This document shows, in pieces, positions 56,335 through 57,549 of a DNA stretch of 64,000 bases; position 1 is the stretch's first letter; each line of letters opens with the position of its first letter. Made by a program: the position numbers and the translations under genes. Under the pieces are notes generated by a model. That model was not told the origin of the DNA and did not search any database. It saw nothing but the letters and a program-made list of their open reading frames with translations. This DNA is from Candidatus Doudnabacteria bacterium RIFCSPHIGHO2_02_FULL_42_25 (lineage in GTDB: Bacteria > Patescibacteriota > Doudnabacteria > UBA920 > O2-02-FULL-48-8), in the NCBI GenBank assembly GCA_001777665.1, contig MFEQ01000006.1, forward strand, positions 24,309-88,308, written 5' to 3'.

Positions 56335-56370
56335 TACGTATTTTATGCGATCGCGCATTTTACGTATTAT
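56335..56370 (+). repeat. 36-bp direct repeat tacgtattttatGCGATCGCgcattttacgtattat (left copy) flanking a two-gene cassette
   Basis: Second copy at 57514-57549 with a single T/C difference. Confidence 0.8.
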
Positions 56371-56960
56371 ATTCTTTTTACAGCTTCAATGAACATTTTG
56401 TTAGTATCGTCAGATACAATTATGAGCCCTCGCACTATTCTTCTGTATGCAGGATCATCGGATTGGCCTCTTCCTCTCGTTATATGATCGAAGCCTCCTA
56501 CTGCAGTCACTAAAATCCAAGGATTGTGCTCTTCCACATCAGGTAATTCATGCCGGTGCTCATTGAAATCCCGACGGTATTCATCTAACCGTAACTGCAG
56601 TAATTTATCCCAATCGATCAAGAATTTCTCCTCAATCCCGAAAGATTTTAAAATTTCTTTGTATGCAGTGAGAATTCCATTTTTTACTTCTTTCAAATAC
56701 TCCCTAAAAAAATCTTCGTGAAAATTAATCAGTGTTTCAGTTTGAAAATAGACTAAACAGAGCGCCGTGACTACTAATTCATTAAAGATCCGATCTTGTT
56801 CAGTTTGGGATAACGAGTCAAAATTAATTTCGCTTCTAAAATCTATATTTCGAAATAAGTCAAAAGCTGACTTTATTGCCTTCATAGTAATGGCCACAGT
56901 ATCTTTTGCCGAATTTGGAGGACCGTAAACAAGTTTTCTGAACATAAAATAGAGTCTCAC
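56367..56960 (-). CDS. Hypothetical protein (197 aa) with possible HEPN-like Rx4H motif (RRDFNEH)
   Basis: ORF. The motif call is weak pattern-matching only. Confidence 0.3.
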   Translation of the reverse strand: MRLYFMFRKLVYGPPNSAKDTVAITMKAIKSAFDLFRNIDFRSEINFDSLSQTEQDRIFNELVVTALCLVYFQTETLINFHEDFFREYLKEVKNGILTAYKEILKSFGIEEKFLIDWDKLLQLRLDEYRRDFNEHRHELPDVEEHNPWILVTAVGGFDHITRGRGQSDDPAYRRIVRGLIIVSDDTNKMFIEAVKRI

Positions 56961-56965
56961 TACGC

Positions 56966-57514
56966 CTAATTGTGCGATCGTGTATTTTGCGTAGAATCAA
57001 ACAGCATTCTGCCTTCTAGGATATTAACATTTAATTCTACTTGTAATTCTTTTAATAGCTCTTTAAATTCTGGTAGTAGCTCCCAAGGTCCGATAAAAAC
57101 ACTCTTTTGCAACATCATAAAGCCGTTTTGAATTAAAAATCGTCTTAAAAATTGTCTGGCTTTTTTCTTTTCTTCGGGGATATCAAACATAACTAGAGTT
57201 GAAAATCCGTTATTCTTTGCCCTTCTCAACTTTCTTGAGTATATATATTTCAAACTCCTTGCCCGCCCTAAATTCGTTATCTGATAGTATGTTTTTCTTT
57301 CTTTTTTGATTTTTTTTACTAAGCCATCTCTGTCTAGTTCCCAAAAAGCTCTGGAAATTTTATAGCGATCATAATATTTAAGCCTTTTGATATATTGATA
57401 CTTGCCTTCAAAAGGATAAGGAATCAGCTCCCCCATATCGCGCAAAAACCAAAGCAATTCTCCAGTAATTGTCTTTAGACGCTTCTTGATTTTTCTTTTG
57501 GTAGTACGTTTCAT
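56966..57514 (-). CDS. wHTH + Cas2-like (VapD/Cas2 fold) protein, paralog A
   Basis: C-terminal half LVMFDIPEEKKKARQFLRRFLIQNGFMMLQKSVFIGPWE matches the Cas2 signature (V.YD.s....R..l...L...G.r.Q.SVF). Basic N-terminal domain. Paralog at 62995-63546. Confidence 0.4.
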   Translation of the reverse strand: MKRTTKRKIKKRLKTITGELLWFLRDMGELIPYPFEGKYQYIKRLKYYDRYKISRAFWELDRDGLVKKIKKERKTYYQITNLGRARSLKYIYSRKLRRAKNNGFSTLVMFDIPEEKKKARQFLRRFLIQNGFMMLQKSVFIGPWELLPEFKELLKELQVELNVNILEGRMLFDSTQNTRSHN

Positions 57515-57549
57515 ACGTATTTTACGCGATCGCGCATTTTACGTATTAT
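57514..57549 (+). repeat. 36-bp direct repeat (right copy) tacgtattttacGCGATCGCgcattttacgtattat
   Basis: See 56335-56370. Confidence 0.8.

Follow-up and report, generated by a model that had tools for sequence, protein, structure and literature searches.

Private palindromic repeats flank winged-helix/Cas2-fold genes in Patescibacteria and may act as operators of the proteins encoded between them

The DNA analysed here (hereafter the window) is a stretch of 64,000 nucleotides from contig MFEQ01000006.1 of Candidatus Doudnabacteria bacterium RIFCSPHIGHO2_02_FULL_42_25. Two minus-strand genes, hereafter named gene A and gene 2, are enclosed by copies of a 37-nt repeat and converge with a GC-rich cassette on the opposite strand. 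The features of this locus, in window coordinates, are as follows.

55800..56210, plus strand: GC-rich convergent cassette with a promoter (TTGACA-17-AATAAT, 55800-55828), a ribosome-binding site (GGAGG) and an ORF of 104 aa
56275..56322, no strand assigned: inverted repeat AAAACGCGGAGGGT / ACTCCCCGCGTTTT with A and T runs on either side
56335..56371, minus strand: distal 37-nt copy, 36/37 identical to the upstream copy, lying over the gene 2 stop
56367..56945, minus strand: gene 2, starting at the ATG 56945 (192 aa) and containing the invariant motif SQTEQDRIFNEL
56961..56997, minus strand: degenerate middle copy, TACGCAAAATACA-CGATCG-CACAATTAGGCGTA on the gene strand
56966..57514, minus strand: gene A, 182 aa, with a PadR/AspA-type N-terminal winged helix and a C-terminal Cas2-fold (PaaX_M) domain
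57514..57550, minus strand: upstream 37-nt copy, TATAAT (-10 box) followed by a 32-bp pseudo-palindrome that runs up to the gene A ATG
57545..57573, minus strand: promoter-like site of gene A, TTAGCA, 17 nt and TATAAT with an upstream TG, 10/12 matches in a consensus scan only

A sequence-only reading of this locus had described near-identical direct repeats at 56335-56370 and 57514-57549, bracketing two minus-strand genes and with the right copy on a start codon. These repeats are real and extend to 37 nt (56335-56371 and 57514-57550), and a 35-nt pattern of the repeat gave exactly two matches in the 64 kb compared with zero expected from 100 shuffles. The ORFs 56966-57514 and 56367-56960 are bracketed as described, the right copy abuts the ATG of gene A with a one-base overlap, and the left copy and the TAA stop of gene 2 overlap. 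The degenerate third copy, absent from that reading, lies on the gene A stop ahead of gene 2 and is well preserved in the orthologous locus L010. On the gene strand, the upstream copy consists of TATAAT and then TACGTAAAATGCG-CGATCG-CGTAAAATACGTA, the -10 box of gene A being part of the repeat, and the promoter-like site, a consensus match, directly abuts the palindrome. A gap of 12 nt separates the distal copy from the convergent cassette's terminator hairpin; the inverted repeat at 56275..56322, which was not listed by a simple terminator scan, may be read from its sequence as a two-way terminator hairpin for the cassette and gene 2. As a single strand, the 37-nt site (type A) folds weakly, with z values of -0.3 and -2.0, and the asymmetry of its A-tracts is conserved, both of which disfavour a pure hairpin role.

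The C-terminal half of the gene A protein had been claimed to be Cas2/VapD-like, and the Cas2 part of this claim is borne out by profiles and structure. The best Pfam match was PaaX_M (PF20803, 4.4e-17), Cas2 (PF09827) followed at 7.8e-9, and the Cas2 model TIGR01573 scored 37.9 bits, above its cut-off of 24.5. The domain carries the FDIPE...QKSVF signature, in which the invariant D111 is aligned to the Asp of MFD in type II-A Cas2. An AlphaFold model of gene A matched best to E. coli PaaX (8a39, E 3.7e-5, 163 columns) and next to Cas2 structures, and in the family profile the N-terminal part matched the AspA and PadR winged helices (E 1.4e-4 to 3e-3) and the C-terminal part matched Cas2. The VapD part did not stand, the VapD equivalog NF041506 giving 16.1 bits against a cut-off of 100. 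A VapD-type toxin-antitoxin pair was rejected on this score and because gene 2 is an unrelated helical fold that occurs alone elsewhere. Pfam, NCBIfam and structure searches with gene A returned winged-helix, PaaX_M and Cas2 matches only, with no HUH/Y1 or tyrosine motif; only Cas2 models matched in the defence library PADLOC, and the phage library PHROGs gave nothing beyond a weak regulator match.

Gene 2 encodes a conserved all-helical protein. Its reading frame extends up to a GTG at 56960, yet the ATG at 56945 used in the database entry is the more likely start. The protein had been suggested to carry an Rx4H HEPN-like motif; the string RDFNEH is indeed present, but it is limited to the closest homologues, its His being missing in P0037 and shifted in P0035, and no HEPN fold or profile match was obtained, so that the HEPN assignment was rejected. 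The invariant residues are Q47, E49, Q50, D51, R52, I53, F54, N55, E56 and L57. Gene 2 is missing in some relatives, and its presence or absence coincides with that of exactly one extra palindrome copy. Its own relatives are found elsewhere without any relative of gene A, and in L014 its homologues lie near a restriction-modification system and a SduA_C-domain protein.

The gene order rseP-gene A-proS is kept in five other Doudnabacteria loci (L004, L007, L008, L010 and a JGI contig). Gene A and its L004 orthologue share 69% identity, similar to the housekeeping neighbours RRF (72%), RseP (68%) and ProRS (56%), which argues for vertical inheritance; with this synteny and divergence, a mobile-element origin of gene A was rejected. 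The site is present both 5' and 3' of the gene in every orthologue (L004, L007, L008, L010 and L017, 44-69% protein identity). Where gene 2 is absent, gene A is still flanked by the repeat on either side, and loci with gene 2 have three copies, one per gene boundary. The arms are conserved among the orthologue sites, and the bases flanking the CGATCG centre match within a genome and differ between genomes. The proposal of a mobile cassette with att-like ends is therefore contradicted by synteny, by neighbour-like divergence and by the repeats around gene A alone; comparison with related genomes revealed a conserved flanking site in all gene A orthologues instead of an att-like duplication. Nor are the repeats part of a longer duplicated intergenic stretch, since the site is conserved and has its own structure. 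Pfam annotation of the genes in a 20.5-kb stretch around gene A (window ~46.9-63.8 kb) gave no recombinase, transposase or integrase, no short target-site duplication was seen beyond the repeats and palindromes, and no relatives were found in viral contigs, phage records or plasmid records. The earlier view that this is not a canonical CRISPR locus agrees with the lack of any repeat array, tandem or spaced, across the 64 kb and of the Cas1 Pfam family among the annotated genes of the 20.5-kb stretch. Rfam detected only the tRNA in the window.

The sequence-only reading had also noticed the same layout at a second Cas2-like gene, paralog B, where it is confirmed with a different palindrome (type B). 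The relevant features are given below.

62995..63546, minus strand: paralog B, 183 aa, winged helix plus Cas2-fold, architecture as in gene A
63554..63581, no strand assigned: palindrome B, upstream copy ACCTAGTTGCCCATATGGGCAACTAGGT, a perfect 28-bp palindrome 5' of paralog B
62963..62990, no strand assigned: palindrome B, downstream copy, 3 mismatches to 63554-63581
12880..12907, no strand assigned: solo palindrome B, identical, ~28 nt past the terminator of the GC-rich cassette 11910-12860
49787..49814, no strand assigned: solo palindrome B, identical, ~10 nt past the terminator of the cassette 49229-49775
43124..43157, no strand assigned: solo B-like palindrome GTACCTATTTGCCCCATATGGGACAAATAGGTAC, past the terminator of the cassette 42709-43095

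Paralog B shares 31% BLASTP local identity with gene A over 114 aa and matches PF20803 at 8.8e-19, with a Cas2 score of 18.5 bits that is under the cut-off; the assignment of both proteins to a winged-helix plus Cas2-fold architecture is supported. The upstream palindrome contains the -35 box and spacer of TTGCCC-17-TAGAAT (63575 to 63547, minus strand, a consensus match), and the downstream copy lies between the paralog B stop and the terminator of the GC-rich cassette 61480-62950. According to consensus promoter scans, the upstream palindrome copy of both window paralogs thus overlaps their own core promoter. The slot of paralog B is occupied by non-orthologous family members in the window and in L004, and it is empty, without a palindrome, in L007 and L008. 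With a slot so variable between genomes, paralog B may have a mobile-element origin.

The same arrangement recurs across the ultra-small Patescibacteria. A pair of own 30-50 bp palindromes flanks 54/79 family members compared with 2/123 control ORFs, and 54/79 is a lower bound because the ORF was extended too far in L016 (the same place as L007), where the flanking repeat is present but was missed. The palindromes lie close to the gene, at most ~10 nt from its start and ~16 nt from its stop, and upstream and downstream copies differ at a median of 6/36 positions within a locus versus 21/36 between loci. In 46/50 loci, the best match to the upstream copy is the downstream copy of the same gene. 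Palindrome bracketing is a trait of the entire family in Patescibacteria, as opposed to a scar left by a local insertion. The type B palindrome is perfect and strongly folding (z about -7), as are many others in the family; most copies are not followed by a T-run, and in L053, L058, L067 and L068 the two copies have asymmetric centres in opposite orientation. The family genes are AT-richer than their surroundings in 71/79 loci. Clusters at 90% identity comprise 1-3 member sequences and 1-5 contigs, the own protein of this genome excluded, and each type is single-copy. Over the whole family, protein identity and palindrome similarity are uncorrelated (rho -0.01), a relation being seen in close orthologues only; this lack of correlation is uninformative since the palindrome arms diverge fast. 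A solo type A copy occurs in L095, and a scan of metagenome contigs with a degenerate type A pattern returned one locus only. An exact 26-mer of palindrome B had no match in metagenome contigs, a collection from which the contigs of this genome are evidently missing.

Both palindrome-bracketed units in the window converge, as had been claimed, with plus-strand ORFs of GC-rich cassettes (GC 0.53-0.64 vs 0.41 for the window). The cassette ORF facing gene 2 (55896-56210, GC 0.53) has no close homologue besides itself among 1.84 billion cluster representatives. All five GC-rich cassettes of the window terminate 10-35 nt ahead of a palindrome, and the same cassette-then-palindrome layout is found at the L095 solo site, at the gene A orthologues in L008 and L010/L011, and at the L004 paralog. 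The PBP2/Fe-permease slot cassettes in L096 and L097 have no palindrome. Family-wide, a convergent downstream neighbour is mildly enriched (29/76 vs 120/441 adjacent ORF pairs), and GC-rich neighbours are not a general trait (6/71 downstream, 5/71 upstream).

Considering these observations, the 37-nt repeats are best explained as cognate operators of the protein encoded between them, a dimeric autoregulator, a reading from sequence comparison to which a probability of about 0.5 is given. The Cas2-fold domain of the gene A protein would probably act as the dimerisation module, as in PaaX, and the predicted dimer target is the 32-bp pseudo-palindrome TACGTAAAA-n4-CGATCG-n3-AAAAnACGTA. Binding to the upstream copy, placed between the -10 box and the ATG, would switch off the gene's own transcription. 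Extra copies follow gene A itself and, in this lineage, also the passenger gene 2; the genome comparison shows that they are maintained by selection or gene conversion. In the least certain step, the same protein may clamp the far end of the unit through the downstream copies, either by looping between the promoter and the distal site or by forming a roadblock or boundary to the convergent cassette with its strong promoter. Paralog B would follow an equivalent scheme with its own, unrelated 28-bp palindrome.

Several points weigh against operators. A plain autorepressor needs one operator, and a second site directly past the stop codon is unusual and unexplained by known PaaX, PadR or AspA biology. 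The solo copies sit where 3' ends converge, in places without a promoter to control. The invariant Cas2 signature, including the beta-1 Asp, hints at retained catalytic activity for which the operator model has no use, and AT-richness together with unrelated members in the same slot of two genomes are features typical of accessory or selfish genes. These last features would suit a selfish or formerly mobile module of the REP/RAYT or IS200 type, in which the Cas2-fold protein would be a nuclease acting on palindromes that mark the ends of the module and spread as solo copies. The bracketing of the gene by its own palindromes in 54/79 loci, the identical palindrome B at 12880, 49787 and 63554, the solo type A copy, the slot left empty without a palindrome, the flipped centres and the invariant Asp all speak for such a module. 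It is nevertheless considered unlikely, because gene A is kept in synteny and diverges in the same way as the housekeeping genes next to it, each type is single-copy in 90% clusters of 1-3 sequences, neither an HUH or tyrosine motif nor, in the 20.5-kb annotated stretch, a transposase or integrase was detected, no target-site duplication was seen outside the palindromes, and the viral contigs, phages and plasmids contain no relatives. A platform for cassette handling, where protein-bound palindromes serve as landing or anchoring sites for the insertion or exchange of promoter-bearing opposite-strand cassettes and passenger genes, loosely like integron att sites, would account for the 5/5 cassettes ending shortly before a palindrome, for the same layout in the other genomes and for the gain or absence of gene 2 together with exactly one palindrome copy. 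This is decidedly improbable in view of the palindrome-free cassettes of L096/L097, the palindrome on only one side of a cassette, the lack of a recombinase among the Pfam-annotated genes, the mild convergent enrichment and the rarity of GC-rich neighbours across the family. The broader formulation, in which the winged-helix/Cas2-fold proteins and their private palindromes constitute a hitherto unrecognised site-specific DNA-handling system of Patescibacteria, with a Cas2-fold catalytic at the centre (CGATCG, CGGCCG, CTATAG or CATATG) and sites that anchor or exchange promoter-bearing, homologue-less cassettes of the opposite strand and passenger genes like gene 2, is a low-probability one; if true, the system would function more like integron att sites or REP/RAYT than like a transcription factor.

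An action at the RNA level, with transcribed palindromes forming 5' and 3' hairpins for stabilising or terminating the mRNA and possibly bound or cut by an RNase-like Cas2 domain, is suggested by the perfect, strongly folding palindromes, by their positions close to start and stop, and by the Cas2 and VapD relatives that are RNases (PMC3506569). It is judged quite improbable, as type A folds weakly and keeps non-pairing A-tracts, the copies are alike in sequence beyond mere pairing ability, a T-run is missing after most of them, and the palindrome of paralog B, lying upstream of the -10 box, would be outside the mRNA. The idea of a mobile toxin or defence cassette, a Cas2-like plus HEPN-like pair with att-like 36-bp direct repeats left by insertion, draws on the exact bracketing of both genes, the relatives without gene 2 and the restriction-modification and SduA_C-domain neighbours of gene 2 homologues in L014. 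It is largely refuted by synteny and the three-copy layout and must be regarded as very improbable indeed: gene A and its flanking sites are ancestral, a third copy separates the genes, HEPN is rejected for gene 2, PADLOC matches are Cas2 models only, and gene 2 relatives exist without a gene A relative. No library searched gave support for a toxin or defence role.

Compared with known systems, the gene A protein most resembles PaaX, the repressor of the phenylacetate catabolon (Pfam PF20803, PDB 8a39), in that a winged helix precedes a Cas2-fold middle domain and 8a39 is the best structural match of the model. In contrast to PaaX, the 182-aa protein ends after the Cas2-fold domain without a C-terminal PaaX_C, the window proteins reach 33-35 bits with the full-length equivalog TIGR02277 against a cut-off of 264.55, and gene A lies between rseP and proS in a reduced Doudnabacterium genome without paa genes nearby. 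To our knowledge, no PaaX gene is bracketed by its own operators. Repressors enclosed by operators are represented by lambda cI between OL and OR, and distant auxiliary operators are present in lac, gal and deo; as there, the sites of the putative regulator flank its gene, 0.5-1.2 kb apart and compatible with looping; the form predicted here is a dimer. With Cas2 and VapD, the protein shares the ferredoxin-like fold and the signature hhhFDhP...R..hR+.L...GF...Q.SVF with the beta-1 Asp; it differs from Cas2 by the fusion to a DNA-binding domain and by the missing array and Cas1, and from VapD by its low score and the lack of an antitoxin partner. REP/RAYT and IS200/IS605 elements similarly have a small gene between palindrome copies and solo extragenic copies, often past convergent genes, but the family protein is not an HUH/Y1 transposase, every paralog comes with a site of its own, the synteny of gene A is stable, and the copy number is low, with three solo palindrome B copies in 64 kb. 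AspA, a dimeric winged-helix protein matched by the N-terminal profile, has its binding site, a 23-bp palindrome, upstream of its own gene (PMC5120986); unlike AspA, gene A has no ParA/ParB partners, has sites on both sides of the gene and contains an additional Cas2-fold domain.

In the literature on PaaX, Cas2-like/HTH proteins and palindromes in CPR, no account of the palindrome-bracketed arrangement was found, and the pattern of palindromes on both sides of Cas2-fold regulator genes is new as far as we found. The tempting toxin/HEPN reading of the locus is corrected as wrong. The results indicate that hundreds of Patescibacteria genes annotated as "CRISPR-associated endonuclease Cas2" or "PaaX" are neither, belonging instead to a family of small winged-helix/Cas2-fold proteins, each with a private 30-50 bp palindrome on either side of its gene. 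This family offers a ready set of natural, mutually distinct pairs of protein and DNA site, as well as a clean test of whether the Cas2 fold outside CRISPR is a dimerisation module only or still a nuclease. It also provides a handle on how reduced genomes insulate and manage opposite-strand cassettes that interrupt runs of housekeeping genes.

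Gene A and gene 2 lie among the minus-strand housekeeping genes of the window (mreBCD, PBP2, proS, rseP, frr and holB). The stretch is also present, reversed, in contig MFFA01000003.1 (RIFCSPLOWO2_02_FULL, GCA_001780055.1), and independent assemblies of it exist in ENA and JGI data. The two genes and their repeat, site A, are arranged as follows.

56335-56371, direct repeat, distal copy, overlapping the TAA of gene 2
56367-56945, minus, gene 2
56961-56997, degenerate third repeat copy, covering the gene A stop and preceding gene 2
56966-57514, minus, gene A
57514-57550, direct repeat, upstream copy, its final base being the A of the gene A ATG

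The 36-bp direct repeats described in the sequence-only reading as bracketing two genes were confirmed at a length of 37 nt with 36/37 identical positions, and their pattern occurred exactly twice in the window and in none of 100 shuffles; the two bracketing copies stood, whereas the degenerate third copy had been overlooked. Read on the gene strand (minus), the repeat consists of TATAAT followed by TACGTAAAATGCG-CGATCG-CGTAAAATACGTA.

The winged-helix/Cas2-like assignment of gene A (182 aa) was borne out by profile matches to PaaX_M (4.4e-17) and Cas2 (7.8e-9), with a TIGR01573 score of 37.9 bits, above the cut-off. The best match of its AlphaFold model (pLDDT 83) was E. coli PaaX (8a39) across both domains, followed in the match list by many Cas2 structures for the C-terminal domain, and the N-terminal part of the family profile matched the winged helices of AspA and PadR. 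The Cas2 signature FDIPE...R...L...GF..LQKSVF is retained, and its D111, aligned with the beta-1 Asp of type II-A Cas2, is invariant. Paralog B shows the same architecture, with a BLASTP local identity of 31% to gene A over 114 aa. Gene 2, whose preferred start is the ATG at 56945 (giving 192 aa, the length of the database entry), had been taken as possibly HEPN-like, wrongly: its Rx4H string is not conserved among homologues, and the small family that includes it has SQTEQDRIFNEL as its invariant motif. Distant homologues in other Patescibacteria are standalone genes adjoining a RecQ-like helicase or a restriction-modification system.

Orthologues of gene A share 63-69% identity, and the order rseP-gene A-proS was found in L004 and L007 (loci from related genomes) and one JGI contig; in two further loci, L008 and L010, the orthologue directly follows rseP, with a cassette or the contig end on the other side. 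Since the identity of gene A between the window and L004 (69%) resembles that of housekeeping genes (RRF 72%, RseP 68%, ProRS 56%), gene A is, on this comparison, inherited vertically and under ordinary constraint. Gene 2 is missing in L004, L007 and L008, and the site still stands immediately before and after gene A there; L010/L011 possess gene 2 and three good copies, before gene A, at the gene A/gene 2 boundary and after gene 2. The mobile two-gene cassette with att-like ends proposed earlier is therefore wrong, as gene A is vertical and flanked by the sites without gene 2. Loci with gene 2 have exactly one more copy than loci lacking it, which is compatible with either insertion at a site or deletion between direct copies. 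An alignment anchored at CGATCG shows the arms TACGTAAAA and AAAAnACGTA in every copy, all oriented alike. The bases flanking the centre vary from genome to genome and match inside each one (window GCG/CGC, L007 TCGA/TCT, L004 and L008 GAC/GTC). Because neutral intergenic DNA would be scrambled at such divergence, the upstream and downstream copies are both maintained.

The layout recurs at paralog B, as had been claimed. At least five plus-strand cassettes stand head-on to the minus-strand housekeeping genes, and copies of palindrome B are found with them.

11910-12860, plus, cassette
12880-12907, solo palindrome B, fully identical
42709-43095, plus, cassette
43124-43157, B-like variant palindrome
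49229-49775, plus, cassette
49787-49814, solo palindrome B, fully identical
55800-56322, plus, cassette
61480-62950, plus, cassette
62963-62990, palindrome B copy with 3 mismatches, at paralog B
62995-63546, minus, paralog B
63554-63581, perfect palindrome B, 28 bp, beside paralog B

Each cassette comprises a near-consensus promoter, a strong ribosome-binding site, one or two GC-rich ORFs (GC 0.51-0.64 vs 0.41 for the window) and a terminator; the promoter-like sites begin TTGACA, three scoring 11/12 in scans and the others being read by eye. Every solo B or B-like palindrome sits 10-35 nt past a cassette terminator, a position occupied for cassettes 55800-56322 and 61480-62950 by the distal site A copy and the downstream site B copy, respectively. 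A degenerate-pattern search revealed one further locus, L095, with a solo type A site between the murJ end and the terminator of a convergent cassette. The cassettes had no match in Pfam, NCBIfam, PADLOC or PHROGs, and of 1.84 billion cluster representatives none was a close homologue of the 104-aa ORF at 55896-56210, which had just three weak, partial hits on long repeat proteins. The cassette-palindrome link is not universal: other opposite-strand cassettes in the PBP2/Fe-permease slot of L096 and L097 lack a palindrome, and GC-rich or convergent neighbours are not typical across the family.

In that slot, three Doudnabacteria assemblies carry three unrelated opposite-strand mini-cassettes (L096 1-500; L097 4600-5000; window 49229-49814); cassette content turns over fast, and the flanks remain syntenic. 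The 5' leader GTTGCACATTTCGTGCACAAGGAGGATAAGATG (61516-61548) of the first cassette near paralog B closely resembles a cassette leader in L004 (~2290-2325, minus). In the window only a 6-codon ORF stands between this leader and the GC-rich part, as if a common cassette head had had its body replaced or truncated. Between the conserved small hairpin element and holB, L004 carries a family member 26% identical to paralog B with its own CGATCG palindrome pair, then a different GC-rich cassette; the same slot in L007 and L008 has no family member, palindrome or cassette. Given these differences in slot content, paralog B-type units are, by this comparison, accessory, unlike gene A.

Further palindromes and signals were observed. 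A CACAC/ACAC stretch precedes all four B-type copies within 7-17 nt on the plus strand (12865-12879, 49777-49786, 62938-62962, 63540-63553), and the conserved B unit may extend past the palindrome on one side. Perfect 32-bp palindromes at 12926-12957 and 43164-43195 (centre GCGATCGC; CCTCTAATTTCAGCGATCGCTGAAATTAGAGG and AACATAAAAGGTGCGATCGCACCTTTTATGTT) lie 7-17 nt from a B-type palindrome, abutting the stop of a minus-strand gene, and may act as terminators in both directions or serve as the sites of additional paralogs whose genes lie beyond the window. The 28-bp palindrome TACTCCAATACTCTATAGTATTGGAGTA (9719-9746), with the CTATAG centre common in the family and no family gene nearby, fills most of the 44-bp gap between two minus-strand genes. 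The -10 boxes of proS (55660-55689) and paralog B (63547-63575) lie just 6-10 nt ahead of the start codon, and no ribosome-binding site intervenes; many mRNAs of this organism may be leaderless or nearly so. In the opposite-strand cassettes, by contrast, leaders are long and ribosome-binding sites strong. Between mreB and holB there is a conserved hairpin, ~75 nt long, with a T-run at its end.

63615-63705, minus, window
2090-2175, L007
918-1003, L008
455-545, L004

Its consensus fold from the four sequences has 31 pairs, 8 of them with two-sided pairing-preserving changes, and no Rfam family matched at threshold; it may be an undescribed small RNA.

Across the family, 80 loci with relatives (one genome per species, nearly all labelled as Patescibacteria lineages) were scored by aligning, without gaps, the 180 nt surrounding the start to the 280 nt surrounding the stop and taking the best match. 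At a threshold of 14, a flanking repeat was found in at least 54 of 79 scorable loci versus 2 of 123 control ORFs of similar size drawn from the same loci, 54 being a lower bound since an ORF-calling error removed at least one locus known to be positive, L016, which is the same place as L007. The repeats are palindromes of 30-50 bp centred on CGATCG (22), CGGCCG (9), CTATAG (8), CGACCG (4), CTATCG (4), CGTACG (3) and a few others. Going by the per-locus gaps, they are set ~10 nt ahead of the start and ~16 nt past the stop, with a median start-to-start spacing of 612 nt. The pairing is private: copies differ at a median of 6/36 positions within a locus vs 21/36 between loci, and in 46 of 50 loci the own downstream copy was the top match among all downstream copies. 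Asymmetric centres (CGACCG/CGGTCG or CTATCG/CGATAG) are flipped between copies in L053, L058, L067 and L068, with palindromic and similar arms, and keep one orientation in L028, L040, L076 and L088; this split, four loci of each kind, is compatible with gene conversion acting in either register between the palindromic copies. In 71 of 79 loci the gene has a higher AT content than the DNA around it, and searches of viral contigs, phage records and plasmid records turned up no relatives. Full-text searches found no published account of this gene-palindrome arrangement, and the regularity, in which most scorable members have a private palindrome on both sides and solo copies stand at cassette ends in this genome, appears undescribed.

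Several known systems share parts of this anatomy. The family proteins fall outside the PaaX equivalog (33 bits vs 264.6) and are not CRISPR Cas2 in the functional sense, since the window has no repeat array and no Cas1 appears among the Pfam-annotated genes of a 20.5-kb stretch around gene A, as the earlier denial of a CRISPR locus had held. REP/RAYT is alike in its bracketed gene and solo copies but differs in that the family protein is not an HUH transposase. The invariant Cas2 Asp may have an enzymatic role, on which readings as a selfish element or a cassette-handling system are based. A purely structural (hairpin) role of type A is unlikely because of its weak folding and conserved non-pairing A-tracts. 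By analogy, the family seems functionally most like PaaX, PadR or AspA-type palindrome binders; the 23-bp palindrome bound by AspA precedes the gene for AspA itself (PMC5120986).

By consensus match, the gene A promoter-like element TTAGCA-17-TATAAT with TG stops where the palindrome begins, and the paralog B -35 box TTGCCC lies inside the palindrome. The protein would bind the palindrome as a dimer, dimerising through its Cas2 fold as PaaX and Cas2 do, and would repress its own promoter. The downstream sites would have a further role, and the options considered most economical are looping with the promoter site or, when bound, acting as a roadblock or boundary to the strongly promoted cassettes that face them head-on.
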